Notes under the pieces: generated by a model
Told to the model about the DNA's origin: nothing
Seen by the model: the letters and a program-made list of their open reading frames with translations, nothing else
Databases searched by the model: none
Origin: Rhodobiaceae bacterium
GTDB taxonomy: Bacteria > Pseudomonadota > Alphaproteobacteria > RS24
DNA length: 64,000 nt
Assembly: GCA_024639515.1 (NCBI GenBank)
Contig: JAHEIG010000001.1
Coordinates: 19,904 to 83,903, forward strand
Direction of reading: 5' to 3'
Program-made: the position numbers and the translations under genes
In this document: piece by piece, positions 1,377 through 14,026 of the stretch
Layout of the letters: every line of letters begins with the position of its first letter
Position numbering within the stretch: the stretch's first letter is position 1

Positions 1377-2480
1377 CTAGATGATAAACTGCACCAGCCC
1401 CAGCATCATCGCCGCCATCAGCAGGGTTTGCACACCAACCATGAAGAGCGGGCGCCAACCGGAATCGCGCATCGCCTCGAAGCTGGTTTTAATGCCCAAG
1501 GCGGCCACCGCCATGACTAAGAAGAAGCGGGCGGTTTCGGTCATGAAACTGGCCAGCGGCGCCGGCAGCAAACCAAAAGAATTGACCGCCACCACCAGCA
1601 AAAACATCAGCAGAAAAGACGGCACTTTCGGCACCGAAGCCCCGGTGCCGCGCGCCCCGACCCAAAAAGCAATCAGCGTGACAATCGGAAACAGCAGGGC
1701 GACGCGCAGCAATTTGGTCACTGTGGCGACCTCGCCCGCATCATCGCTGACCGCATAACCGGCCCCCAGCACTTGCGCCACATCGTGAATGGAACCGCCG
1801 AAGAAAACCCCCGAGGCGATGTCATCAAGCTGCAATTGCGTCGCGGCGATGGGATAAACAATCATCGCCACAGATGACATAGTGGCGACGCTGATAATGA
1901 CGAAAATCGTGTTGCGCTCCAGCGTCTCTGATTTCGGCAAGACGGAGGATACCGCCAAGGCCGCCGAGGCGCCGCAAATAGCCACCGCGCCACCGGCCAA
2001 AACCCCCAACTCGCGCGGCAATTTTAGAATTCTTGCGAGCGCCACGCCTGAGAAAAACGTGATGGCAACCACCCCGACCACCGCCAAGACGACGCTATAG
2101 CCAAGCCCAGCGATTTCTTGAAAGGTCAGTTGCGCGCCGGAAATCGCAATGCCGGTGCGCAACAGGTTCTTGGCGGCAAAATCTAGCCCCGGGGCGGTTT
2201 GCTCAACCTTGGCGAGAAAGTTCAACGCCATGCCAACCAGCAAAGCGAAGAAAACTGCTGGCGCCAGATAGTGTTCGGCCAAAAACAGCGCTGACAAAGC
2301 GATGATCAAAACCGTCGACAGGCCCGGCGTCAGCCGCTTAATGCCGTCGACACTCCACAGCTTAACCGGCGCCGCCTCTAGCGTCGGCAGACCCTCCATC
2401 GAGTCCATATGGCTGAGATTGGCATAATTGAATTGCGAGAGACCCTGTTGCGTCTGCTCACGATCGCTGGAATGTGGCAT
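1377..2480 (-). CDS. YeiH/UPF0324 family integral membrane protein (putative sulfate exporter family)
   Basis: Polytopic membrane ORF. The track ORF extends to 2582, but ATG at 2480 (MPHSSD...) avoids overlapping the divergent TetR gene. Start is uncertain. Confidence 0.65.
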   Translation of the reverse strand: MPHSSDREQTQQGLSQFNYANLSHMDSMEGLPTLEAAPVKLWSVDGIKRLTPGLSTVLIIALSALFLAEHYLAPAVFFALLVGMALNFLAKVEQTAPGLDFAAKNLLRTGIAISGAQLTFQEIAGLGYSVVLAVVGVVAITFFSGVALARILKLPRELGVLAGGAVAICGASAALAVSSVLPKSETLERNTIFVIISVATMSSVAMIVYPIAATQLQLDDIASGVFFGGSIHDVAQVLGAGYAVSDDAGEVATVTKLLRVALLFPIVTLIAFWVGARGTGASVPKVPSFLLMFLLVVAVNSFGLLPAPLASFMTETARFFLVMAVAALGIKTSFEAMRDSGWRPLFMVGVQTLLMAAMMLGLVQFII

Positions 2481-2606
2481 ATGACCCCTCGCGTGAATGC
2501 CGCTAGAGCATAGCAATGTTTGCCACCCACCGCCAGATGCGCTGAAGCTGATCGGGGGCAGGCGATATTTTCGTTGACCCATGCAAACACCTTGCTAGAA
2601 CAAGGT

Positions 2607-3227
2607 ATGTTACACGAGCGCGATAAACCGCAGCAAACGCGGTCCAAAAAACGGGTTGAGGCAACGCTGCAAGCGGCCAAGAAAGTGCTGGCCGAGAGCG
2701 GCTATGCCAGCATGACGCTGCAAGCTGTATGCCAAGAGGCGGATGTGAAACCGACCTCGATTTACCGCTATTGGCCCAATCAAGCGGCCTTGCTGACCAG
2801 TCTGTTAGAGGTGTTTGAAGAAGAAATGGCTGCCCTGATTCTTGGCCACGCCGAAAACGGCGACTCCAGCGATTGGCGCCACAGCCTGCGCCAGTTGATA
2901 GGCGACATCACGGATTATTGCGAAGCCAATCTCTGGGTCTATGCCGGACGCACGGCGCTGTCGGATAATTCGGTTTTCATGCAAATGCACAAGCAAACAT
3001 TTGCCCTTTTCGCGCAGCATATCAGCCGCTTATTCGACGCCATGGGCATGGTCGATGATGCCAAAAAACTCCACGCGGCGCAAACCTACACGCTGATCAT
3101 GGACGCTTATATGGGCGCCGTGTCGCGCGATAGCGGCAATCGCGAGGCCATCCGCCAAATTCAAGGCACTTTCATGGAAGTCATCTGCGCGTTTGTGGCG
3201 CCGTATTTTGAGGCAACCTCAAGCTAA
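2607..3227 (+). CDS. TetR/AcrR family transcriptional regulator
   Basis: N-terminal HTH (SGYASMTLQAVCQEADVKPTSIYRYWPN) typical of TetR. Start taken at ATG 2607 inside track ORF 2520-3227. Divergent from the YeiH-like gene. Confidence 0.75.
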   Translation: MLHERDKPQQTRSKKRVEATLQAAKKVLAESGYASMTLQAVCQEADVKPTSIYRYWPNQAALLTSLLEVFEEEMAALILGHAENGDSSDWRHSLRQLIGDITDYCEANLWVYAGRTALSDNSVFMQMHKQTFALFAQHISRLFDAMGMVDDAKKLHAAQTYTLIMDAYMGAVSRDSGNREAIRQIQGTFMEVICAFVAPYFEATSS

Positions 3228-3313
3228 CCCACCGGCTTGCGCCAACCCCACGCCCGTATTGCAAAGCCGCGCCTTTGTGCTAGCCTTTGCCTCAACTATT
3301 TAGGGGAGTTGTC

Positions 3314-4165
3314 ATGTTATCCGTTGTTGTTACCGGCGCATCATCCGGTATTGGTCGCCAAATTTCGCAGACACTTGTGGCCAATGGCTATCGGGTGTTT
3401 GGCTCTGTGCGCAAAGCCAGTGATGGCGAGGCGGTTGCCGCCGATTTGGGCGGAAACTTCGTGCCTTTGGTGTTTGACGTTACTGACCGCGAGGCTGTTG
3501 ACCGCGCCGCCCAACAAGTCGATGCGGCGCTGCAAGGTAAAACCCTTGCTGGTCTGATTAACAATGCCGGTATTGCGGTGATCGGGGCGATACAAAATCT
3601 GTCGCCGGAGGAGTTCCAAAATCAGTTTGATGTCAATCTGATGGGGGTGTTCCACTGCACGCAAGCGTTTCTCGACCTGCTCGGGGCCGATAGCGGGCGC
3701 GACGGCGCGCCGGGCAAAATCATTAATATCAGCTCGGTTTCGGGTGAGATTGGTATGCCGCTGATGGGTGCTTACAATATGAGTAAATTTGGGCTCGACG
3801 GTTTTTCCGAGGCCCTGCGGCGCGAGCTGATGCTGTTTGGCATTGATGTTGTGGTGCTTGCACCAGGGCCAGTGAAAACCCCGATCTGGGAAAAAATGCC
3901 CGGCGACGAAATGCTGGTCCGCTATGACAACTCAGCCTTTCGCGATGTGCTGGCCCGGATGATGGGCTTCACCGAACAAATGGAGAGCGGTGGTTATGAA
4001 CCAGAGGTCATTGCCGACCGCGCCTTGGCCGTGTTGCGGGCCGCTAAGCCGAAAACCCGCTACACGCTTGACGCCCAGTGGATGCAGAACCGGCTTCTGG
4101 CCCGCCTGCCCAAGCGCATGGCCGACAAAATGATTGCCAAGCAAATGGGGCTACAGAAAAAATAG
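3314..4165 (+). CDS. SDR family oxidoreductase
   Basis: TGASSGIGRQ cofactor motif, NNAG, and the S...YxxxK catalytic pattern (YNMSK). GGGGAG RBS lies before ATG 3314. Confidence 0.85.
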   Translation: MLSVVVTGASSGIGRQISQTLVANGYRVFGSVRKASDGEAVAADLGGNFVPLVFDVTDREAVDRAAQQVDAALQGKTLAGLINNAGIAVIGAIQNLSPEEFQNQFDVNLMGVFHCTQAFLDLLGADSGRDGAPGKIINISSVSGEIGMPLMGAYNMSKFGLDGFSEALRRELMLFGIDVVVLAPGPVKTPIWEKMPGDEMLVRYDNSAFRDVLARMMGFTEQMESGGYEPEVIADRALAVLRAAKPKTRYTLDAQWMQNRLLARLPKRMADKMIAKQMGLQKK

Positions 4166-4215
4166 CCTGCCCCTTGGGGCAATTCCCATAAAGCTTTTGG
4201 GCGGCATAAAATAAA

Positions 4216-4245
4216 TTGACACTCAATGTGTCATAAATCTATCTT
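4216..4245 (+). promoter_or_regulatory. Sigma-70-type promoter candidate for the DUF2855-DUF4396-MFS module
   Basis: TTGACA (4216-4221), an 18-nt spacer, TATCTT (4240-4245). Lies 29 nt upstream of ATG 4274. Confidence 0.5.
4217..4233. promoter_or_regulatory. Inverted repeat TGACAC-N5-GTGTCA overlapping the -35 (operator candidate)
   Basis: Perfect 6-bp arms at 4217-4222 and 4228-4233. A TetR-type regulator is encoded 1 kb upstream. Confidence 0.4.
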
Positions 4246-4273
4246 ACAACCTGCAAGATAGGAGACACCCCAC

Positions 4274-5386
4274 ATGCGCCTGACTTCAACTGATTTCGTT
4301 TTTAACCCTGACGACTTTCGGGACGCCAAATTTATCGACGGCGGTGAGCTGGATAGTGACCAGTTAAACGACGGCGAGGTGATTATTGCCGTCGACCGTC
4401 TGGCCCTGACCGCCAATACCATTTCCTATGGCATCGCTGGCAAGTCCGGCCTTATCCGCTATCTCGAGAGTTTCCCGACTGACGCGCCTTATGCGCGCAT
4501 GCCGTTTTGGGGGTTTGGCGATATTGTCGCCTCGGCCCACCCAGATTTGCCGGTCGGCGAGCGGCTTTACGGCTTCTACCCGTTATCGACCTATCTGCTG
4601 TGCCAAATGGATCATGTGAGCGCGGTGTCTTGTCGCGATATGACGCCGAGCCGAGCCAGCATTCCGGGGTTTTATAGCGACTATGCGCGGGCCACCGCCG
4701 AGCCGGGCTATGCCGCAGAATTTGATGATATTCAAAGCCTGTTGCGGCCTGTCATCAGCACCTCTTTTCTGCTTGAGAGCTATCTGATGGATCATGATTT
4801 TTACAACACGCGCAATATCATCATCACCAGCGCGTCGAGCAAAACCGCTTTTGGCTTTGGCCATTTTCTGCTCAATAAACACAGCGACAAATGCCGCGCC
4901 ATTGGCCTGACATCGGTCAGCAATAAAGCCTTTGTCGAAAAGACCGGCTGTTATCACCAAGTGTTGACCTATGACGAGGTCGACCAATTACCGCTCGAAA
5001 GCGCCACGGTTTTTGATATGGCCGGTAATGCGCAATTGCGCCAAGCCATCCACCAACACCTTGGCGAGCACATCGCCTATAGCGGTATTGTCGGCGCCAC
5101 CCATTGGGATGCCGGTGGCGTCAGCAAAAACCTGCCCGGCCCGCGACCGGTTTTCTGGTCGGGGCCAGACCAAATCGCGCGGCTTGAGAAAAAGCTCGGC
5201 TCGACCCACAACATTCTCAATGAAGTGCAAGGTCAGGTATTGGGTCTGATTCTGGAGAGTGCCAACTGGCTAGAAATATCGCAGTTTCAGGGAGAAGCAG
5301 AAATCACCAGCGCCTATCGCGACATGCTAGACGGCAAAGTCGGGGCTGAGACAGGTGTTATTTTTTGCGCCAAAGGCGTATTTTAA
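4274..5386 (+). CDS. DUF2855-like protein (MDR-fold-like, function unknown), paralog 1
   Basis: 370 aa. Shares FxxTANxxxYGxAG, WGF, VGERxxGYxP, SASSKTAxG, GLTSxxNxxFVExxGCY and THW blocks with ORF 11763-12872. AGGAGA RBS. Confidence 0.6.
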   Translation: MRLTSTDFVFNPDDFRDAKFIDGGELDSDQLNDGEVIIAVDRLALTANTISYGIAGKSGLIRYLESFPTDAPYARMPFWGFGDIVASAHPDLPVGERLYGFYPLSTYLLCQMDHVSAVSCRDMTPSRASIPGFYSDYARATAEPGYAAEFDDIQSLLRPVISTSFLLESYLMDHDFYNTRNIIITSASSKTAFGFGHFLLNKHSDKCRAIGLTSVSNKAFVEKTGCYHQVLTYDEVDQLPLESATVFDMAGNAQLRQAIHQHLGEHIAYSGIVGATHWDAGGVSKNLPGPRPVFWSGPDQIARLEKKLGSTHNILNEVQGQVLGLILESANWLEISQFQGEAEITSAYRDMLDGKVGAETGVIFCAKGVF

Positions 5387-5431
5387 TCCTGCCCCATTGA
5401 AAAACCCGTCGCCATGTCCAATATCTAATAT

Positions 5432-5890
5432 ATGAGCGAAACAACACCAAAAACCGCCTCGCCTTTCAGCATTGATTGGCGCTGCCGCCCAACCTGGCGC
5501 ACCGCCAGCTATAACACCTTATGGTGCCTCATCGGCTGTTCGATTGGCGATATGGGCACCATCCTTTATTTCCAACTGACCGGCATTGCCTGGCCGGTCT
5601 GGGCAATTATGGGGCTGGCGATTATCAACGGCTTGCTGACCTCGATTGCGCTGGAAACCATTTTGCTGGCCCGCCAAATGGCGCTGAAAGCAGCCTTTCA
5701 TACGGCCATTGGCATGTCGCTGATTTCTATGGTGTCGATGGAACTGGCAATGAACATTGTCGATGTGCTGGTCACTGGCGGCGCCCGCCTCACCCTCTGG
5801 GTTTTGCCGCTGATGTCGTTGGCCGGCTTTATCACCCCACTGCCGTATAATTATTGGCGCCTAAAAGCCCTCGGCAAGGCCTGCCACTAG
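5432..5890 (+). CDS. DUF4396-like small integral membrane protein
   Basis: 152 aa, about 4 TM, with a CLIGCSIGDMG motif in the first helix. Family recalled from that motif. No clear RBS. Confidence 0.5.
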   Translation: MSETTPKTASPFSIDWRCRPTWRTASYNTLWCLIGCSIGDMGTILYFQLTGIAWPVWAIMGLAIINGLLTSIALETILLARQMALKAAFHTAIGMSLISMVSMELAMNIVDVLVTGGARLTLWVLPLMSLAGFITPLPYNYWRLKALGKACH

Positions 5891-5956
5891 CATTAACTGT
5901 TTTCTTTTTCCAACAGCTTGTATAGCCTTCTCACACGTAAGAGGGAGTTCAAGTTT

Positions 5957-7204
5957 ATGGAGCAAGTCAATGAGTTTAAGCGCGGTTGGAAGGTTCTATT
6001 CGCTTGTTTTTTGGGTATCGCGGTTAATCTGGCCACACTTCCCTATTATACCAATGGTATTTTCATTCGCTTCTGGCAGGAAGAATTTGGCTGGAGTCGC
6101 GCCGAAATAGGTGCCCAGACAAGTATCGCCGTGATTGTCATGGTGCTCAGTGCACCGCTTGCCGGACGCTTGCTCGACCGCTATGGCATCCGTTTGGTGG
6201 CCTCTATTTCGCTGACGCTTTTCGCGGTGACGCTATATTCAGTGCGCCATGTCGTTGATTCACTGGCCGACCTTTACATCATCTCTATGCTATATGCGCT
6301 TTTAGGTATCGCCTCGACACCGATTGCTTTTACCCGCGCGATTAGCGCGTTTTTCGTCAAACATCGCGGCCTGGCGCTTGGTATCGGCCTTTCTTCAACC
6401 GGCCTGACAGCTTATTTCTCGCAAACCTATCTGACGCCTTATGTCGCCGAACATGGCTGGCGCGCCGGTTATGACATTCTGTTCTGGGTGGTCATGGTGA
6501 CGGTGCCATTCGTCTATTTCTGGACCCGCGATTATCCCGAGGACACGCCAACACAAAACCAAGACAGCGAGACAGCACCCAGTGAGCAGAGAGCGCAAAG
6601 TGCACATAGTGATTATGACCTAACCTTCTCGGAAAGCATCCGCACCGTCACATTCTGGAAACTCGCGACTATTTTCTTTATCCTCGCCGTGGCCATTCTC
6701 GGCATTGTGCCAGCCTATATTCCGCTGCTTCTCGACGCTGGCCTATCGCCCGCCGAGGCCGGTCAAATTGGCGGGGTGATGGGCATTTCGGTATTGGCAG
6801 GACGCCTCATCATCGGCGCCGCTCTGGACCGCGTCTATCCGCCTTATGTGGTCGCCACCGTCTTTACATTGGTCGCCGCCAGCTGCTTGGCATTGGGCAT
6901 GGGGGGTATTGAATATGCCTTGCTCACGGCCATCGCTCTGGGCTTTGCCGTCGGCGCCGAAGTTGACCTTATTGGCTATTTCACGGCGCGCTATTTTGGC
7001 CTGTCCCATTACGGGGCCATTTATGGTCTGCAATACAGCATTTTCATCGGCGGTGCTGGGGTCAGCCCGATTTTGGTCGGCTATAGCTGGGACGTCACCG
7101 GCAATTATGATGTGGCGCTGATTGGCGCCGCGTGCATGCTGATACCGGTGGTGCTGATCAGCTTCACCCTGCCGCGTTTTAACGACGAAATGGCCGCCCA
7201 TTAA
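5957..7204 (+). CDS. MFS transporter
   Basis: About 12 TM segments split by a central hydrophilic loop (PTQNQDSETAPSEQRAQ), plus an MFS-like GRLLDRYG motif. ATG 5957 follows GAGGGAG. TTG 5918 is an alternative start. Confidence 0.75.
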   Translation: MEQVNEFKRGWKVLFACFLGIAVNLATLPYYTNGIFIRFWQEEFGWSRAEIGAQTSIAVIVMVLSAPLAGRLLDRYGIRLVASISLTLFAVTLYSVRHVVDSLADLYIISMLYALLGIASTPIAFTRAISAFFVKHRGLALGIGLSSTGLTAYFSQTYLTPYVAEHGWRAGYDILFWVVMVTVPFVYFWTRDYPEDTPTQNQDSETAPSEQRAQSAHSDYDLTFSESIRTVTFWKLATIFFILAVAILGIVPAYIPLLLDAGLSPAEAGQIGGVMGISVLAGRLIIGAALDRVYPPYVVATVFTLVAASCLALGMGGIEYALLTAIALGFAVGAEVDLIGYFTARYFGLSHYGAIYGLQYSIFIGGAGVSPILVGYSWDVTGNYDVALIGAACMLIPVVLISFTLPRFNDEMAAH

Positions 7205-7324
7205 GCCGCCCATAGGGGTATTCGCAAGGCCTTAAGCCGGCTGATGACGGGGCCGCCAATGCTTGACTTATCGACACCGGGGTGCCAGCATCTTTAGCAA
7301 TCTTGGGAGGATTGTGACAGTCGT

Positions 7325-7368
7325 GTTTTTGACGCGATGGAGGTTGCGTTTTTGGACGCGATAGGAGG
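7325..7368 (+). repeat. Imperfect tandem direct repeat GTTTTTG(G)ACGCGAT(A)GGAGG x2
   Basis: Copy 1 at 7325-7343, copy 2 at 7348-7368, a 23-nt period with one single-base indel in each copy. Copy 2 supplies the RBS of the 7377 ORF. Confidence 0.7.
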
Positions 7369-7376
7369 AGTAAACA

Positions 7377-8276
7377 GTGTTTAAATATAAACCGAAAACA
7401 GTCGATGAAATTGTCATTCGGGATTTTTCCTTTGAATTTCCAGATGACATTGATCCCGTATGGATTCCCAATCAACGTGTGCGCAGTCACATGTTCAACG
7501 GCCTATCTCTGACCATGCCGCATCTTGAGCCATATCTGGTCAAGACAGCCCGCGAGTCAGCCCGTGGCATTGAATGCGAAGAATTGCTGGCCGATATTCG
7601 TGGCTTCTGCGGCCAAGAGAGCCAGCATTATAAATGTCATCGCCGTCTCAATGATGTGCTGACCGCCAATGGCTATCCTGAGTTCGCGAAAGTCGAAGAA
7701 CGCATGGATAAGGCATGGAAAAAACTAATGACCCAAAGCCTCGAAAAGCGGCTCGCCTATTCAGCCGGTTTTGAGTGTATGACCAATGGCTTCACCCTGT
7801 GGCTGATTAAAAAGCGTCTGCAATTATTCAAAAATGCAGATCCGCATATCACCTCTTTCTGGCTGATGCATATGATTGAAGAAACCGAGCACAAAACCGT
7901 TGCGCTCGATTGCTATATGGCCCATTCGGGTCGCTATTGGACGCGCTTCTTGGGCGTGTTCCACGGCTCGTTCCATGTCGTCGGCTGGGGTCTTATCGGC
8001 ATGATGTCGGGCCTTAAACAAGATGGCGTGCTGAAAAAACCAAGCACATGGTTTGAGCTGGCCCGCGAAATGGGGTCGATGATTTATAATGTCGGGCCGT
8101 TTTTGCTCCGCGCCTTAAAGCCCGGCCATGACGCGCGTGACGAGATTGACCCGTCATGGATGCATCAATGGACGGATGGCTACGCCAAAATGCCTGCTGA
8201 ACAGCCTATCCCGCTCCTGGATACAGAACATCCGGACATGCCGGTACCTTTTGAAACCTTACAGGCAGCTGAATAA
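7377..8276 (+). CDS. Predicted metal-dependent hydrolase family (PF10118-like) protein with diiron-like ExxH motifs
   Basis: GTG start 7 nt after AGGAGGAG. N-terminal FSFEFPDDIDPVW pattern. E51...E81-S-Q-H84 and E133...E169-T-E-H172 motifs. Confidence 0.5.
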   Translation: MFKYKPKTVDEIVIRDFSFEFPDDIDPVWIPNQRVRSHMFNGLSLTMPHLEPYLVKTARESARGIECEELLADIRGFCGQESQHYKCHRRLNDVLTANGYPEFAKVEERMDKAWKKLMTQSLEKRLAYSAGFECMTNGFTLWLIKKRLQLFKNADPHITSFWLMHMIEETEHKTVALDCYMAHSGRYWTRFLGVFHGSFHVVGWGLIGMMSGLKQDGVLKKPSTWFELAREMGSMIYNVGPFLLRALKPGHDARDEIDPSWMHQWTDGYAKMPAEQPIPLLDTEHPDMPVPFETLQAAE

Positions 8277-8302
8277 CCTGTAGATCTGTCTGGGAGGACA
8301 TT

Positions 8303-8782
8303 ATGGATAGATATCAAAAACTAATGATCGCGCATGGCTTTTTGGTCACGTTGGTTGGCCTGCTGGCCGGCTTTATGCTGATGTTTAGCATGTTGGGTGG
8401 GCTTGAGCTTGGGCCTGGCAACTGGCTGGAATTTAGCGTCTATGGCAGCGTCGATGGCTGGGTGCGGGCGCACAGTGGCGGCCTCACCAATGGCATGCTG
8501 ACAGTGATTGTCGCGCTCGCCTTGCCGAAACTCGAGATCAGCGAAAAAATGACCAAGTTCTTTGCTTGGGGTCTGATTTATTGCGCTTGGACCTTCACCG
8601 CCTTCTATTGGATTGGCAACGCTTCAGCCAACCGTGCTTTGTCGATTGGCGACAATGTATTTGGTGCGGCTGACTGGCTTAGCATTATCGGCTTCTTGCC
8701 GGGTCTGCCGAGCATCTTTATTGGCCCTGCCGTGCTGTATATCGGTGCGCGCGGCGCGCTGCGGGCGATACAAAAAAGCTAA
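8303..8782 (+). CDS. Small 4-TM membrane protein, styrene-oxide-isomerase (StyC)-like candidate
   Basis: 159 aa with four hydrophobic helices. The GWVRAHSGGLTNG motif gives His57 and Asn63, and Tyr102 follows. This matches my recollection of the StyC haem/catalytic residues (His58, Asn64, Tyr103). Not verified by alignment. Confidence 0.4.
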   Translation: MDRYQKLMIAHGFLVTLVGLLAGFMLMFSMLGGLELGPGNWLEFSVYGSVDGWVRAHSGGLTNGMLTVIVALALPKLEISEKMTKFFAWGLIYCAWTFTAFYWIGNASANRALSIGDNVFGAADWLSIIGFLPGLPSIFIGPAVLYIGARGALRAIQKS

Positions 8783-8803
8783 TCGCTAAAAATACGGCGA
8801 GCC

Positions 8804-9508
8804 TCAGCTAACCGCATCTTGCTGCGGATAGTTGAGGCTCTGCCGCTTTTGCTGCCAATCCGGCAGAAACTTATCCATCAGTCGATAAAACCGCGCATTG
8901 TGATAGCGCTCGAATAAATGCACCAATTCGTGCACCACGACATATTCCAACAAGGCCACAGGCTTATGCGCCAAATCGCTATTCAACCGAATGGTGGCGC
9001 GGCGAATATTGCAACTGCCCCAGCGCGTCTTCATCCGTTGCACATAAAGCCCATTGGGTTTGACCTGCATCACCTCGGCCCAATGGGCAATGAGTGGCTC
9101 GGCCTCGGCGCGTAATTGCTGGCGCAACCACGCCTCGAGCAAATCATAACGTTGCTCGCGTGTGGCCTGCGCGCGGCAATGTAAAACCACCTCGTCGCCG
9201 CTTATCTCGACGCATTGGCGATTACGGCTTGGCCGCACCCGAAGATAATAATCGGCGCCCCATAGCTGATAAGTCTCACCATCGAGAAACTGCGCCTCGC
9301 GCGTCGGGGCTTGCGCTTGCAGCCGTGCTTGGTGCTTTTCAATCCAGCTTTGTTTTTCGCGGACAAACTGCTCAATCGTCGCCAGCCGTGTGCCATGCGG
9401 GGCCGATATTTGCACCTGCCCATCAGGCGGGGCGATTTTTAGATTGACGTTTTTGATCGCCTTAAAGGTGACATTGACGCTCTGCCCACCAACTTGCACT
9501 TGTGTCAT
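8804..9508 (-). CDS. M48 family metallopeptidase (YgjP/DUF45-like)
   Basis: HELVHLFERYHN zinc motif near the C-terminus. Start at ATG 9508 is preceded by a GAGGGAAGGGA purine tract. The track ORF extends to 9604. Confidence 0.75.
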   Translation of the reverse strand: MTQVQVGGQSVNVTFKAIKNVNLKIAPPDGQVQISAPHGTRLATIEQFVREKQSWIEKHQARLQAQAPTREAQFLDGETYQLWGADYYLRVRPSRNRQCVEISGDEVVLHCRAQATREQRYDLLEAWLRQQLRAEAEPLIAHWAEVMQVKPNGLYVQRMKTRWGSCNIRRATIRLNSDLAHKPVALLEYVVVHELVHLFERYHNARFYRLMDKFLPDWQQKRQSLNYPQQDAVS

Positions 9509-9638
9509 AGCGTCCCTTCCCTCAGGCTTCAGCAAAAAAAATAACGCCCAATCATAAGCCTGTTTGTCGCCAGCGCAATCGACCAACTGCGACCTTTCGC
9601 GCATCGTGGTTGACCCGGGGCTTGGCTAAAACAAACCC

Positions 9639-10010
9639 ATGCTTATCGGTGCGGGCCGTGTAAGGCCGTTTGTTAATCTGCTTATGCTGACGCTGTTTGT
9701 TTTCAGCGGCATCGGCGCGTCTGCCTGCCACAAGGTCGGCGATGTGATGACCATTTGCGGTGCCTCGGGCTTTGAAACCGTCTATATCGACTGGCAAAAC
9801 GATAGCTCGTCATCTGATCAGCACGAGGTCGACAGCGAACCAAGCTGCTGTGACACCGGTCTGCATAAAACCGCATTATCGGCCAAACGGGCCAGCCTAT
9901 TTGCCGCGCCGAGCGACAGCCTTCTGCCGCCGCGCCAGAATATCCACCTCCCCGAAACCCTCACCCGCTCTTACCACTCGCGGGCCCCACCTGTTTCAGC
10001 CAATACCTAA
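9639..10010 (+). CDS. Hypothetical membrane-anchored Cys-rich protein (DUF2946-like?)
   Basis: N-terminal hydrophobic segment, Cys/His positions (ACH, ICG, SCCDTGLH), C-terminal SRAPP. Sits 30 nt upstream of the outer-membrane barrel gene. Coding status is not certain. Confidence 0.35.
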   Translation: MLIGAGRVRPFVNLLMLTLFVFSGIGASACHKVGDVMTICGASGFETVYIDWQNDSSSSDQHEVDSEPSCCDTGLHKTALSAKRASLFAAPSDSLLPPRQNIHLPETLTRSYHSRAPPVSANT

Positions 10011-10039
10011 AAAACCTACTGAAACAGACTGGAAAAATT

Positions 10040-11122
10040 ATGAACATCTTAAAAAACCTGCCGGGCGCCCGCCTGGTCGTCACTGCTGTGGCAACCCTTA
10101 CCCTTTCAACCGCTTTCTCAACCGCCTTTGCTGACGCCCGCGCCATTGACCACGCGCCGATTGGCGTGATGGCCGACCATATGCACAAAGCCGGCGAATG
10201 GATGGTCTCTGTGCGCCACATGCAGATGCAGATGGACGGCAACCGCAATGGTCGCAACAAAGCCAGCGATGCCGATATTCTGCAAATCGCCAACAGCCAT
10301 AGCGGCCCCGCCACATTGAAGGTGGTGCCGCAAAATATGACCATGGATATGACCATGCTCGGCATGATGTATGCGCCAAGCGAGGACATCACATTGATGG
10401 TGATGGCGAATTATCTTGAAAACCAAATGACCGCCACCACCTACGCCATGATGGGCGGGGCCAAATTAGGCACTTTCACCACCCACTCAGAAGGCCTTGG
10501 CGACACAACCATCGCCGCTTTGTTCAAGGTGGGCGCCCTGCCAGCCGGTGAAAACGGCAAATGGCACGGTAGCTTCGGCATCAGCCTGCCCACTGGCTCG
10601 ATTAAACAGGCCGATAGCATTCTGACGCCGATGAATATGAAAATGGTCGCCCGCCTGCCTTATGCCATGCAATTAGGCTCCGGCACTTATGATGTGAAAC
10701 CATCACTGACCTACACCGCCGATAAGGGCTCTTATGTCTATGGCGCGCAAATTAACGCGACACTGCGGCTTGATGACAATAGCCAAGGCTACACACTGGG
10801 CGATAAAGCCAGCGCCGAAGCATGGGTGATGACCTCATTCAGCGACCAATTGAGCGGCTCGCTGCGCCTGAAAGCCGAAACCAGCGGCGACATTGACGGC
10901 CAAGATGCGGCAATCGACAAGCCGGTGCAATCGGCCCAGACGCATATGTATGGCGGAGAGCGCGTGCATCTCGGCCTCGGCTTCAACGTCATCGGCCATC
11001 ACGGCTGGCTGGCTGGCCACCGCTTCGCCTTTGAAGCGACAATGCCGATCTATGAAGACCTCAATGGCCCGCAAATGTCGCAAGACATGAACCTGACCTT
11101 GGGTTACCAGAAAGCTTGGTAA
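10040..11122 (+). CDS. Outer-membrane beta-barrel protein, Met/His-rich (Phenol_MetA_deg-like transporter family)
   Basis: Signal peptide ending AFA-DA. HAPIGVMADHMHKAGEWMVSVRHMQMQMDG motif. Alternating beta-strand pattern. C-terminal aromatic residue (YQKAW). Confidence 0.55.
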   Translation: MNILKNLPGARLVVTAVATLTLSTAFSTAFADARAIDHAPIGVMADHMHKAGEWMVSVRHMQMQMDGNRNGRNKASDADILQIANSHSGPATLKVVPQNMTMDMTMLGMMYAPSEDITLMVMANYLENQMTATTYAMMGGAKLGTFTTHSEGLGDTTIAALFKVGALPAGENGKWHGSFGISLPTGSIKQADSILTPMNMKMVARLPYAMQLGSGTYDVKPSLTYTADKGSYVYGAQINATLRLDDNSQGYTLGDKASAEAWVMTSFSDQLSGSLRLKAETSGDIDGQDAAIDKPVQSAQTHMYGGERVHLGLGFNVIGHHGWLAGHRFAFEATMPIYEDLNGPQMSQDMNLTLGYQKAW

Positions 11123-11258: not shown

Positions 11259-11675
11259 ATGATTGGACGGTTAAACCATGTCGGCGTCGCTACGCCGTCG
11301 ATTGATGAGAGCGTAAAAATGTACCGCGACATTCTCGGCGCGACGCATATTGGCGAGAAGTTTGCGCTTCCCGAGCAAGGCGTGCATGTCTGCTTTGTCG
11401 ATGTCGACAATAGCCAAATCGAGCTCATCGAACCCTATGACGAGAACAGCCCGATTAATGGCTTTCTGAAAACCAACCCGAGCGGCGGCCAGCACCATGT
11501 GTGTTACGAAGTCGACGATATTCACGTGGCGCGCGACGAAATGATTGCCAAAGGCGTGCGGGTGCTCGGCGAGCCGCGCATTGGCGCCCATGGCACGCTG
11601 ATTATTTTTCTTCATCCGAAAGATATGGGCGGTGTGCTGACCGAATTAATGGAACGCCCAGAAGCGGCGCATTAA
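11259..11675 (+). CDS. mce: Methylmalonyl-CoA epimerase (VOC/glyoxalase fold)
   Basis: 138 aa. LNHVGVATPSID, QIELIEP and GGQHHVCYEVDDI are typical of the epimerase. GGGAGA RBS. Confidence 0.85.
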   Translation: MIGRLNHVGVATPSIDESVKMYRDILGATHIGEKFALPEQGVHVCFVDVDNSQIELIEPYDENSPINGFLKTNPSGGQHHVCYEVDDIHVARDEMIAKGVRVLGEPRIGAHGTLIIFLHPKDMGGVLTELMERPEAAH

Positions 11676-11762: not shown

Positions 11763-12872
11763 ATGAGCCAATTACAGACCTATAAGAGCGATCTGGTGAA
11801 AACACGGATTGTCGAAACCGACGAAGCCGCCGCCCGCGACGGGCTGCGACAGGGCGACATCCTCGTGCGCATTGAAAGCTTCTCCTTCACCGCCAATAAT
11901 GTGACCTATGGCGCGGCTGGCGACGATATTGGCTATTGGCAATTCTTCCCCGCCCTCGACAATGAGGATGGTGCATGGGGGCTGATTCCAGTTTGGGGAT
12001 TTGCCGAGATCACCGCCTCAAAGGCCAACGGGCTGGAAGTCGGCGAACGGATTTTCGGCTATTTCCCACCGGCTGATTTTCTTACCCTGTCACCGTCGAA
12101 AATGTCGCCTGTGCATTTCGTTGACGGCGCCGACCATCGCGCCGACTTGCCGCCGGTTTATAATAATTACGTCCGGCTTTCTGGTGAGGCCGATTATGAT
12201 CCGGCGATGGATTACACGCGGGCGCTGCTATTCCCGCTGCATGTCACCTCCTTCTGCCTGTGCGACGCGCTGCAAGATGCTGGCTATCACAACGCCAAGC
12301 AGGTGATTATCGTCAGCGCCTCAAGCAAAACGGCGATTGGCTTGGCCCAAGGCCTGAAAGACGAAGCCAACGCACCAACCACTTTCGGCCTGACATCGGG
12401 CGGCAATCGCACCTTTGTTGAGAGCTTGGGCTGTTACGACCACGTGATTTGCTATGACGAGCTGGATAAACTCGACGCCAGCTTGCCCAGCGTCATGGTC
12501 GATATGTCGGGCGACCGCTTCGTGCTCGGCACGGTGCACGGCGCGCTCGGCGATAATATGCTGAATTGCATCCAAGTCGGCATGACCCATTGGGAATATC
12601 GCGACGCCGAAAAAGACCCCATCGCGGCGCAGATTATCCAACAACGCAGCGCCTTCTTCTTCGCCCCGAGCCATATTCAAAAACGTATCGGCGATTGGGG
12701 GCAGGATGGTTACAAAGCCCGCACTAATGCCTTTATGGCAGCGCGCGCCGCCCAAAGCCGAGAATGGATGCATATCGAGACGATATCGGGCATGCAGGCT
12801 TTCAGCCGCACCTATGATGAGGTTGTCGTCGGCAATATGAAACCAAGCGAAGGGTTGATTATTCTCCCGTGA
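11763..12872 (+). CDS. DUF2855-like protein, paralog 2
   Basis: 369 aa, collinear with ORF 4274-5386 (same conserved blocks). Its stop overlaps the purT GTG start (GTGA). Confidence 0.6.
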   Translation: MSQLQTYKSDLVKTRIVETDEAAARDGLRQGDILVRIESFSFTANNVTYGAAGDDIGYWQFFPALDNEDGAWGLIPVWGFAEITASKANGLEVGERIFGYFPPADFLTLSPSKMSPVHFVDGADHRADLPPVYNNYVRLSGEADYDPAMDYTRALLFPLHVTSFCLCDALQDAGYHNAKQVIIVSASSKTAIGLAQGLKDEANAPTTFGLTSGGNRTFVESLGCYDHVICYDELDKLDASLPSVMVDMSGDRFVLGTVHGALGDNMLNCIQVGMTHWEYRDAEKDPIAAQIIQQRSAFFFAPSHIQKRIGDWGQDGYKARTNAFMAARAAQSREWMHIETISGMQAFSRTYDEVVVGNMKPSEGLIILP

Positions 12873-14026
12873 CCGCGTTTTCACATAGCCGTAAAATTCT
12901 GCTGCTCGGCAGCGGCGAGCTTGGCAAGGAGCTGGTGATTAGCCTGCAACGCCTCGACCAGCAGGTTATCGCCTGCGATTGCTATGACGGCGCGCCCGCC
13001 ATGCAGGTGGCCGATGGCTATGAAGTATTTGATATGCTCGACGCCGCCGCCTTGGAAGCGGTGATCGAGCGCCACCAGCCAGATTTCATCGTGCCAGAAA
13101 TTGAAGCGATTGCGACCTCTCTGCTGGTCGACAAAGAAGCCGAGGGCTACACCATTGTGCCATCGGCCAAAGCCGTCGACCTGACCATGAACCGCGATAA
13201 AATCCGCGATCATGCCGCCTCGATTGGCCTGCGGACAGCCCGCTTTGCCTATGCCGAAAGCGAAGATGAGTTGCTGGCACGGGCCAGCGAGATTGGCGGC
13301 AAAGTGGTTATCAAGCCGGTGATGAGTTCATCGGGGAAAGGCCAAAGCACGGCCACCAGCCAAGACCAATTACGCGCCGCATGGCGTTACGCCCTAGACG
13401 GCATGCGCGGCGACCGGGCGCGGGTGATTGTCGAGGAATTCATCGATTTCGATTATGAGATTACCCTGCTGACCATTCGACAAAAAACCGGCGACACGCT
13501 GTTCTGCCCACCCATCGGCCATGTGCAGGCGCGCGGCGATTATCAATATAGTTGGCAAGCTGCGGCATGTTCCGATGCGGTCATCGCCGATGCCCAAGCC
13601 ATGGCTGCTAAAATGACCGCAGCGCTTGGCGGGGCTGGCTTATTTGGCGTCGAGTTTTTTGTCACCAAACAGGGCGAGGTGGTGTTTAGCGAGCTCAGCC
13701 CGCGCCCGCATGACACTGGGCTGGTGACGCTTTACACGCAAGATTTGAGCGAGTTTGACCTGCACGCGCGCGCCCTTCTGGGCCTGCCCATCCCGCCGAT
13801 TACGCTGCTGCGCGAAGGCGCCAGCCAAGTCATCTTGGCCGATGCCGAGGCCAGCGGGCCTTATGACATAGACGGCATTGACGCGGCCTTGGCGGTGGCG
13901 AATTGCGATATTCGGATTTTTGGCAAACCGGTGGCGCGCCCCTATCGCCGCCTTGGTGTGGTGCTCGGCCCCGACATTGCGACGGCGCAAAAAGCCGCGC
14001 AGTGTGTCAGCGTGCGTGCGCGCTAA
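12869..14026 (+). CDS. purT: Formate-dependent phosphoribosylglycinamide formyltransferase (GAR transformylase 2)
   Basis: ILLLGSGELGKE N-terminus, ATP-grasp body, 385 aa. GTG start overlaps the upstream stop. Confidence 0.9.
   Translation: MTAFSHSRKILLLGSGELGKELVISLQRLDQQVIACDCYDGAPAMQVADGYEVFDMLDAAALEAVIERHQPDFIVPEIEAIATSLLVDKEAEGYTIVPSAKAVDLTMNRDKIRDHAASIGLRTARFAYAESEDELLARASEIGGKVVIKPVMSSSGKGQSTATSQDQLRAAWRYALDGMRGDRARVIVEEFIDFDYEITLLTIRQKTGDTLFCPPIGHVQARGDYQYSWQAAACSDAVIADAQAMAAKMTAALGGAGLFGVEFFVTKQGEVVFSELSPRPHDTGLVTLYTQDLSEFDLHARALLGLPIPPITLLREGASQVILADAEASGPYDIDGIDAALAVANCDIRIFGKPVARPYRRLGVVLGPDIATAQKAAQCVSVRAR

Follow-up and report, generated by a model that had tools for sequence, protein, structure and literature searches.

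Pairing of a predicted diiron protein of family PF10118 with a divergent relative of styrene oxide isomerase in a conserved two-gene cassette of uncultured bacteria

Five open reading frames (ORFs) follow one another on the forward strand of a 64,000-nucleotide stretch of the genome of a Rhodobiaceae bacterium (GenBank assembly GCA_024639515.1, contig JAHEIG010000001.1, positions 19,904 to 83,903), which we name the window. Gaps of 45, 66, 172 and 26 nucleotides (nt) separate them (Table 1). They encode, in this order, a DUF2855 protein, a DUF4396 membrane protein, a transporter of the MFS family, a 299-residue member of the Pfam family PF10118 and a 159-residue membrane protein related to styrene oxide isomerase (SOI). 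An earlier interpretation, the sequence-only reading, had seen in these genes a single module for a pathway that would make an epoxide and isomerize it, perhaps together with the TetR and SDR genes located just upstream. ORF calls and hidden Markov model searches reproduce the five genes, their spacing and their five family assignments, including the CLIGCSIGD motif of the DUF4396 protein. As for the extent of the conserved unit, comparison of genomes leads us, with high confidence, to a two-gene cassette only, at 7377-8782, made of the PF10118 gene and the SOI-like gene. The notion of an epoxide-forming and epoxide-isomerizing pathway survives for these two genes, and finds no support for DUF2855, DUF4396 and MFS. 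Literature searches (PF10118, COG3687, UCP07580, DUF2855, SOI with diiron or hydrolase) found nothing relevant and, as far as they go, the pair has not been described previously. It would probably associate a divergent clade of a known isomerase family with an uncharacterized, probably mis-annotated, oxygenase family.

Linkage of the two genes is the observation on which the cassette is founded. A scan for the SOI-like gene, limited to one genome per species, gave 80 loci (L011-L090), 78 of which include upstream DNA. They belong to the Parvibaculales/Rhodobiaceae/PS1 clade, Pseudomonadales, Myxococcota, Binatia, Limisphaerales and others. In 71 of these 78 genomes the SOI-like gene is immediately preceded by a PF10118 gene of the same strand; the distance between them has a median of 33 nt and runs from -43 to 100, five pairs overlapping. 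Conversely, among 80 metagenome loci carrying the relevant PF10118 clade, 75 of them assessable, the SOI-like gene comes directly downstream in 62, and about 0.6 kb off in three more. The identities of the two proteins to their counterparts in the window co-vary (r = 0.89), and the contexts of five SOI-like proteins (58-69% identity), otherwise unrelated, all have PF10118 directly upstream. Nucleotide similarity to the 17 closest genomes compared (L011-L026, L053) tells the same story: it begins at 7361-7410, either at the PF10118 start or no more than about 35 nt from it, and for the majority of these genomes it ends at 8753-8782, up to the stop codon of the SOI-like gene. Among the closest relatives carrying the pair are metagenome-assembled genomes (MAGs) of the PS1 clade and of Rhodobiaceae, and the pair is present in the streamlined genomes, about 1.8 Mb, of Parvibaculaceae MAGs (L017, L021). 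All 80 species-level genomes are labelled as metagenome-assembled or single-cell, with no cultured isolate; two of them, L047 and L050, bear the label of Klebsiella pneumoniae MAGs, which looks like mislabelling. PF10118-SOI fusion ORFs called in four high-GC genomes were discarded as out-of-frame read-through artefacts of ORF calling.

No third partner accompanies the pair, as judged from neighbour clustering and from Pfam scans that covered, on either flank, the two ORFs nearest to it. In the 80 genomes these flanking ORFs represent 140 and 129 Pfam families, none of which is found in more than seven of about 137 ORFs. Flavin monooxygenases of the Baeyer-Villiger type (BVMO, 13 loci), SDRs (14) and luciferase-like oxygenases (10) recur, too rarely to establish linkage. 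In the window species, neither an aldehyde dehydrogenase nor StyA/StyB is encoded within 10 kb of the pair, and neither is among the neighbour families that recur in the 80 genomes. The seven SOI-like loci that lack PF10118 have no common replacement for it. A P450 is near one of them and an aldehyde dehydrogenase near another (L049); a third has an ORF that resembles DUF2236 oxygenases when judged by eye, without a family search.

The downstream gene codes for a genuine SOI homologue, to judge from its sequence, and belongs to a distinct clade of that family. A phmmer search against the PDB retrieves the SOI structures 8pnu and 8pnv, residues 4-140 of the query aligning with residues 19-152 of the chain, across the membrane core, while precomputed Pfam assignments place all 120 listed relatives of the protein in PF26512, the SOI family. 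The NCBIfam StyC equivalog model NF045734 matches it with 118.5 bits, and it is 33-37% identical to StyC. What stands of the earlier likening to StyC is thus membership in the SOI family, rather than in the StyC equivalog. The alignment is ungapped over the region of interest and pairs H57, N63, C94, F98 and Y102 with H58, N64, D95, N99 and Y103 of SOI, which bears out the His/Asn/Tyr spacing that had been pointed out; of the reference StyC, only the stretch printed by phmmer was used. Counted in 117 unique sequences of the clade, the position of the haem ligand, H57, is kept in 116, while the two positions that bind the epoxide oxygen, N63 and Y102, are kept in 117 and 115, respectively. The third transmembrane segment (TM3) is the most conserved part of the protein, and the clade has no second conserved histidine as a possible haem ligand. 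These residues matter in SOI itself: cryo-electron microscopy showed ferric haem b bound via H58, with N64 and Y103 positioning the epoxide oxygen (PMC11374702), and the role of His58 as axial ligand is also given in PMC12502698. In the VLB120 enzyme the N99A and Y103A variants are inactive, N64A and D95A being impaired (PMC11374702); the D94A variant of a Rhodococcus SOI kept activity (PMC12502698). Read against these data, the clade keeps the ligand of the haem along with both residues that bind the oxygen, in a pocket more hydrophobic than that of StyC. H57 is predicted to carry haem b, whose sixth coordination site would be left open between N63 and Y102. Since the pocket differs from that of StyC, with F98 in the place of Asn99 and Val, Cys or Ile at position 94 in the place of Asp95, the substrate is probably not styrene oxide.

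The upstream gene codes for a protein that matches PF10118 with 180.1 bits, far above the gathering score of 33.2. Its AlphaFold2 model, built with 32 homologues, is all-helical (pLDDT, the confidence score of the program, 91.7). When this model is compared with the PDB using Foldseek, places 1 to 21 are all occupied by R2lox or by the R2 subunit of ribonucleotide reductase (RNR R2; probability 0.93-0.99), with CmlI and AurF lower, and no hydrolase fold shows up in the top 50 matches. The pattern of conservation points in the same direction. In 40 members of the family at 24-56% identity there are nine invariant columns, all Glu or His: E51, E81, H84, H88, E133, H165, E168, E169 and H172. They contain the repeated (E..ExxH)x2 pattern that the sequence-only reading had singled out, as E51, E81xxH84, E133 and E169xxH172. 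In the clade linked to SOI, the arrangement Q80-E81-x2-H84 / H165-x2-E168-E169-x2-H172, together with E51 and E133, is invariant in 113 sequences, and the motifs QExxHxxxH and HxxEExxH are found in 97-98 of 102 full-length representatives of the wider family. AurF and the AurF-like dimetal halogenase CylC display the pattern E / [D/Q]ExxH / E / Hxx[D/E]ExxH (PMC12101540). Cross-matches in Pfam among the 40 members go to AurF in four (best E 2e-4), to Rubrerythrin in three and to Ferritin_2 in one. The window protein itself has no match to Pfam AurF (PF11583) at E values up to 5, and no significant PDB match to PF10118 came from searches with sequences or with profiles. Taken together, residues and model predict an AurF/CylC-like, ferritin-type diiron oxygenase or oxidase; whether the fold is ferritin-like or of the haem-oxygenase type, the scaffold is predicted to be dinuclear and O2-activating, and not that of a hydrolase. 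The earlier preference for a diiron-like protein over a hydrolase is upheld by the fold matches and the invariant residues.

No hydrophobic segment was found in the PF10118 protein, which is predicted to be soluble. Its C-terminus deserves attention: the tail PLxDTxxPxMPVPF, residues 279-292, is almost invariant in the 113 clade sequences, and occurs in a single one of the 102 representatives of the wider family, namely that of the SOI-linked clade itself. The confidence of the AlphaFold2 model falls in this tail. Conserved, probably flexible and confined to the clade that has a membrane partner, it looks as a docking motif would, and this would fit the published suggestion that SOI may act as the membrane anchor of a complex (PMC12502698). 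PF10118 as a whole comprises 1,843 clusters at 50% identity. Distant homologues (30% identity) are frequent on Acinetobacter plasmids (53 records) and in Ralstonia plasmid records (125). On one of the former (NZ_CP118893.1, L095), the gene adjoins genes for a TetR regulator, a BtrH-domain protein and two PaaI thioesterases; a P450 cluster near PF10118 on Acinetobacter plasmids was set aside as a functional clue, an insertion sequence lying between them.

The layout of the region is given in Table 1, where gene order comes from ORF calls and from gene calls on contigs with proteins 97-100% identical to those of the window.

Table 1. Genes and sequence features around the PF10118/SOI-like pair (positions in the window)
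Feature	Position	Strand	Evidence or remark
TetR-family regulator	2607-3227	+	profile searches; part of species-specific block
SDR oxidoreductase	3314-4165	+	profile searches; part of species-specific block
Promoter-like site and two inverted repeats	4216-4261	+	motif scan, palindrome search
DUF2855 protein, MDR fold	4274-5386	+	Pfam, E 9e-73; model and Foldseek
DUF4396 membrane protein, CLIGCSIGD motif	5432-5890	+	Pfam, E 7e-35
MFS transporter, oxalate/formate or monocarboxylate type	5957-7204	+	MFS_1, E 1e-35
Spacer between MFS and PF10118 genes, 172 nt	7205-7376	+	holds a tandem near-duplicate of about 24 nt
PF10118 ('Metal_hydrol') protein, 299 residues, GTG start	7377-8276	+	Pfam, E 8e-53
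SOI-like membrane protein, 159 residues	8303-8782	+	PDB 8pnu, E 2.8e-24; NCBIfam StyC, E 2.4e-34
YgjP-like metallopeptidase	8804-9604	-	convergent; 3' boundary, 21 nt past the SOI-like stop codon

The five-gene module gives way at the level of the neighbours of the pair. DUF2855, DUF4396, TetR and SDR genes stand beside it only in L001-L004, contigs about 97-100% identical to the window at the protein level; none of these window genes was found near the pair in the 80 other species genomes or in any of the other metagenome loci. The co-occurrence that had been expected of the families is thus real for PF10118 and the SOI-like gene, and does not extend to DUF2855, whose orthologues (61-68% identity to the window protein) adjoin sulfatase and GST-like genes. 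MFS adjoins the pair in one further lineage, L098 (MFS 73%, PF10118 79%, SOI 82% and YgjP 66% identity), so that it may be weakly linked to the pair, short of a place in a conserved module. The transporter, for which the mechanical ORF begins at TTG 5918 and gene callers on identical contigs choose ATG 5957, has L-lactate and oxalate/formate transporters as its nearest NCBIfam models. Membership of DUF2855 and DUF4396 in the cassette is doubtful. Because similarity to relatives starts near PF10118 and the DUF2855 orthologues are found elsewhere, we consider the upstream block (TetR, SDR, DUF2855, DUF4396, MFS) as unrelated to the cassette and outside any conserved pathway. It may be co-transcribed with the cassette in the window species.

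The MDR fold proposed for the DUF2855 protein is borne out by its model (pLDDT 91.3), which combines a GroES-like domain with a Rossmann fold. Foldseek returns PTGR1, a plant DBR and CurA (E about 1e-15, TM score 0.6-0.7). These nearest structural neighbours are NADP-dependent reductases of the C=C double bond of enones and enals, not aldehyde oxidoreductases, and they leave the idea of an MDR protein acting on the aldehyde with no specific support.

Control of the upstream block can be outlined from motifs. The site TTGACA-18-TATCTT (4216-4245), reproduced here with its overlapping palindrome, is the top promoter-like match in 2000-10500, with 10 of 12 positions; the same scan gave 11 sites in all, for 6.6 +/- 2.5 expected by chance. 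It is a plausible promoter, short of proof. An exact palindrome, TGACAC-N5-GTGTCA (4217-4233), which has no other exact occurrence in the window, shares nucleotides with the -35 hexamer, as does another inverted repeat, at 4239-4261, with the -10 hexamer. These repeats are candidate operators for the TetR regulator encoded upstream. One nucleotide past the SDR stop codon, at 4167-4182, a GC-rich hairpin (CTGCCCC-TT-GGGGCA), with a T-run on the minus strand only, may divide the TetR and SDR genes from the promoter-like site at 4216. In the spacer that precedes the cassette (7205-7376), the promoter and terminator scan gave neither a promoter-like nor a terminator-like site. It contains a tandem near-duplicate of about 24 nt, 7320-7343 (GTCGTGTTTTTGACGCGAT..) and 7343-7368 (GTTGCGTTTTTGGACGCGAT..), ending in GGAGG directly 5' of the GTG start at 7377; a repeat search calls it, the Tandem Repeats Finder program does not. 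An Rfam search of the window yielded no RNA element, and base composition gave no sign of a recently acquired island.

Synteny downstream of the cassette takes in the YgjP gene in some relatives (L023-L025, L098). A second DUF2855 paralogue, at 11763-12872, is 30% identical to the first and overlaps by 4 nt a PurT-like ATP-grasp gene (12869-14026). This couple, a glyoxalase-like gene (11259-11675) and YgjP are syntenic in the Rhodobiaceae MAGs L023-L025. Between YgjP and the glyoxalase gene, the segment 9639-11122 encodes a small cysteine-containing ORF with a weak DUF2946 match, followed by a 360-residue protein that is rich in His and Met in its N-terminal region and weakly resembles Phenol_MetA_deg outer-membrane channels. 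Nucleotide comparison shows that this segment is missing at the corresponding place in L023-L025; in L027, a homologue stands some 2-3 kb upstream of the SOI-like gene. The closest relatives, L177 (7377-12633) and L179 (7355-12620), in which PF10118 is 79-82% identical, have an acyl-CoA ligase gene directly upstream of the pair, a convergent gene for an aldehyde-oxidoreductase-type enzyme with molybdopterin and 2Fe-2S centres downstream, and a P450-BVMO-SDR-ferredoxin group 6 kb upstream. The neighbours in L177 and L179, in L049 and in the 13 BVMO loci fit with catabolism of lipophilic compounds, and prove nothing.

From homology, residues, predicted folds and linkage we infer a scheme that covers metal content, O2 activation, epoxide chemistry, docking and substrate. 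The pair would be a self-contained cassette, an oxygenase and a haem isomerase, acting on a lipophilic substrate, a reading to which we give a probability of about 0.45. The PF10118 protein would bind a pair of iron atoms at an AurF/CylC-type site and activate O2; it would oxygenate the lipophilic substrate, most likely converting a C=C bond into an epoxide. The product would partition into the membrane, where the ferric haem of the SOI-like protein would act as a Lewis acid and rearrange the epoxide to a carbonyl compound. The C-terminal tail of the diiron protein would probably dock on its membrane partner, and the substrate of the latter would probably be other than styrene oxide. In the true sty cluster that we examined, StyC is encoded alongside styA and genes for a flavin reductase and an aldehyde dehydrogenase, after the epoxidase and before the dehydrogenase, and this is why we see PF10118 as taking the place of the epoxidase. 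More tentatively still, the pair may be a widespread two-component system that takes an alkene to an epoxide, then to an aldehyde or ketone, in uncultured bacteria of marine, freshwater, groundwater and other metagenomes.

Several observations weigh against this cassette chemistry. As far as we know, AurF-type enzymes carry out N-oxygenation and CylC halogenation, and epoxidation is known for neither. Literature and PDB searches uncovered no PF10118 member with an experiment or a solved structure. The fold matches of the model are weak (E 0.03-0.4, TM score 0.37-0.47), and the family profile weakly matches BesC, a haem-oxygenase-like diiron protein (E 0.46), aligning the same HxxxExxH element, so that a haem-oxygenase-like diiron fold is a weak alternative to the ferritin-like one. 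On the side of the membrane protein, the score of 118.5 bits falls below the 150-bit cut-off of the StyC equivalog, the position of Asn99 is a phenylalanine (F98) in 114 of the 117 clade sequences, and that of Asp95 is Val, Cys or Ile (C94 in the window protein). Linkage has its gaps as well: the SOI-like gene occurs without PF10118 in seven of 78 genomes, and PF10118 without the SOI-like gene in about 7-10 of 75 metagenome loci. Finally, across the 80 genomes the surroundings of the pair include no conserved reductase, ferredoxin or aldehyde dehydrogenase.

This last point may be turned into an argument for another view of the membrane protein, as a haem b anchor that would conduct electrons, from quinol for instance, to the diiron protein, the two subunits making an oxidase, hydroxylase or desaturase of a lipid or a quinone. 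A published proposal already has SOI as a membrane anchor (PMC12502698), and, besides the lack of a separate conserved reductase, this view can draw on the C-terminal tail, whose conservation suggests a stable complex, on contexts that vary, down to the streamlined genomes of about 1.8 Mb, around a pair that stays self-contained, and on the loss of Asn99 and Asp95 from the catalytic network of SOI. The near-invariance of N63 and Y102, and TM3 as the most conserved segment, fit a catalytic distal pocket better. Haem used for electron transfer is usually bis-His, and no second conserved histidine is there as a ligand. We see the conduit as unlikely, and worth keeping in mind. The order of events might also be reversed, with the SOI-like protein making a carbonyl compound from an epoxide formed elsewhere, a lipid epoxide for instance, and the diiron protein then deformylating or oxidizing it. 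Ferritin-like diiron enzymes that act on fatty aldehydes do exist, the aldehyde-deformylating oxygenase of cyanobacteria being one; R2lox, the top structural neighbour of the PF10118 model, binds a fatty-acid ligand; and a conserved aldehyde dehydrogenase is wanting near the pair. Against this order, the signature of PF10118 is of the three-His AurF/CylC type, not of the two-His type of the deformylating oxygenase, and an upstream source of epoxide has no independent evidence. The odds seem to us to be long.

They are hardly better for the view that the five genes, with TetR and SDR, form one pathway of the sty kind, where a diiron epoxidase, a membrane isomerase, an MDR protein acting on the aldehyde and an MFS transporter would succeed one another. 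A common strand, short gaps, a good promoter-like site with its palindromes, the lack of a terminator-like site before 7377 and the MFS-PF10118-SOI order found again in L098 speak for it. It is made improbable by the species-specific distribution of DUF2855, DUF4396, TetR and SDR, which no other metagenome locus and none of the 80 other species genomes shows in the vicinity of the pair, by the unrelated neighbours of the DUF2855 orthologues, by the start of nucleotide similarity to the closest relatives compared at 7361-7410, and by structural neighbours of DUF2855 that reduce C=C bonds, not aldehydes. There is lastly the name of the family. Were PF10118 a metal-dependent hydrolase, as Pfam, NCBI and the source annotations have it, it would set free a substrate for its membrane partner, or act on the product of that partner. 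This name is predictive, and the literature search found no tested instance of it; a model that resembles no hydrolase fold in its top 50 PDB matches, invariant residues in the diiron-type pattern and family cross-matches that go to AurF, Rubrerythrin and Ferritin_2 all run counter to it, and we give it very little credit.

If the oxygenase-isomerase cassette is what we propose, its interest goes beyond this locus. We know of no enzyme family other than SOI for the Meinwald rearrangement, and SOI is used in biocatalytic cascades. A large, separate SOI clade with a different pocket and an oxygenase partner would widen the known chemistry and biology of the family, while the diiron evidence for PF10118, 1,843 clusters of which none is characterized or solved, would correct a widespread annotation. 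Known only from metagenome-assembled and single-cell genomes, the pair may mark an unrecognized route for the oxidation of lipophilic compounds in uncultured bacteria. Should the more tentative reading, from alkene to aldehyde or ketone, hold true, PF10118 would be the first single-subunit AurF-like family of diiron epoxidases, some 1,800 clusters named 'metal-dependent hydrolase' would be O2-activating diiron enzymes, and enzymes of the Meinwald rearrangement would have in the SOI-like clade a second, larger branch, with a pocket for non-aromatic substrates.

Comparison with known systems shows where the cassette is familiar and where it departs from precedent. In styABCD, StyA/StyB is the epoxidase, StyC the isomerase and StyD the phenylacetaldehyde dehydrogenase. 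As there, a member of the SOI family that keeps the haem His, the Asn and the Tyr is encoded beside an O2-dependent enzyme, here a predicted one; unlike there, neither the StyA/StyB flavin epoxidase nor an aldehyde dehydrogenase is found at the pair, and the partner is a diiron-like PF10118 protein. The SOI-like protein is only about one-third identical to StyC and below the equivalog cut-off, and it has Phe in the place of Asn99 and Val, Cys or Ile in that of Asp95. The arylamine N-oxygenases AurF and CmlI and the dimetal halogenases of the CylC type are ferritin-like diiron enzymes with a three-His site. They share with PF10118 the pattern of ligands and the organization as single-subunit helical proteins, AurF and CmlI being among the Foldseek matches. 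The window protein differs in having no significant sequence similarity to them, and PF10118 in its extra invariant His88 and Glu171, its clade-specific tail and an obligate membrane partner predicted to carry haem. R2lox is the best structural match, a single ferritin-like protein with a dinuclear site and a lipid-binding channel; the TM score is only about 0.4, sequence similarity to PF10118 is lacking, and to our knowledge the physiological function of R2lox is itself not known. The logic of the proposed chemistry is found again in PaaABCE with PaaG, and in BoxAB with BoxC, where a ferritin-like diiron enzyme forms an epoxide which the next enzyme rearranges or opens. Those are multi-subunit systems with dedicated reductases, working on CoA thioesters with soluble crotonase-type enzymes, unlike the pair described here, in which a single diiron-like protein would hand its product to a haem isomerase in the membrane.

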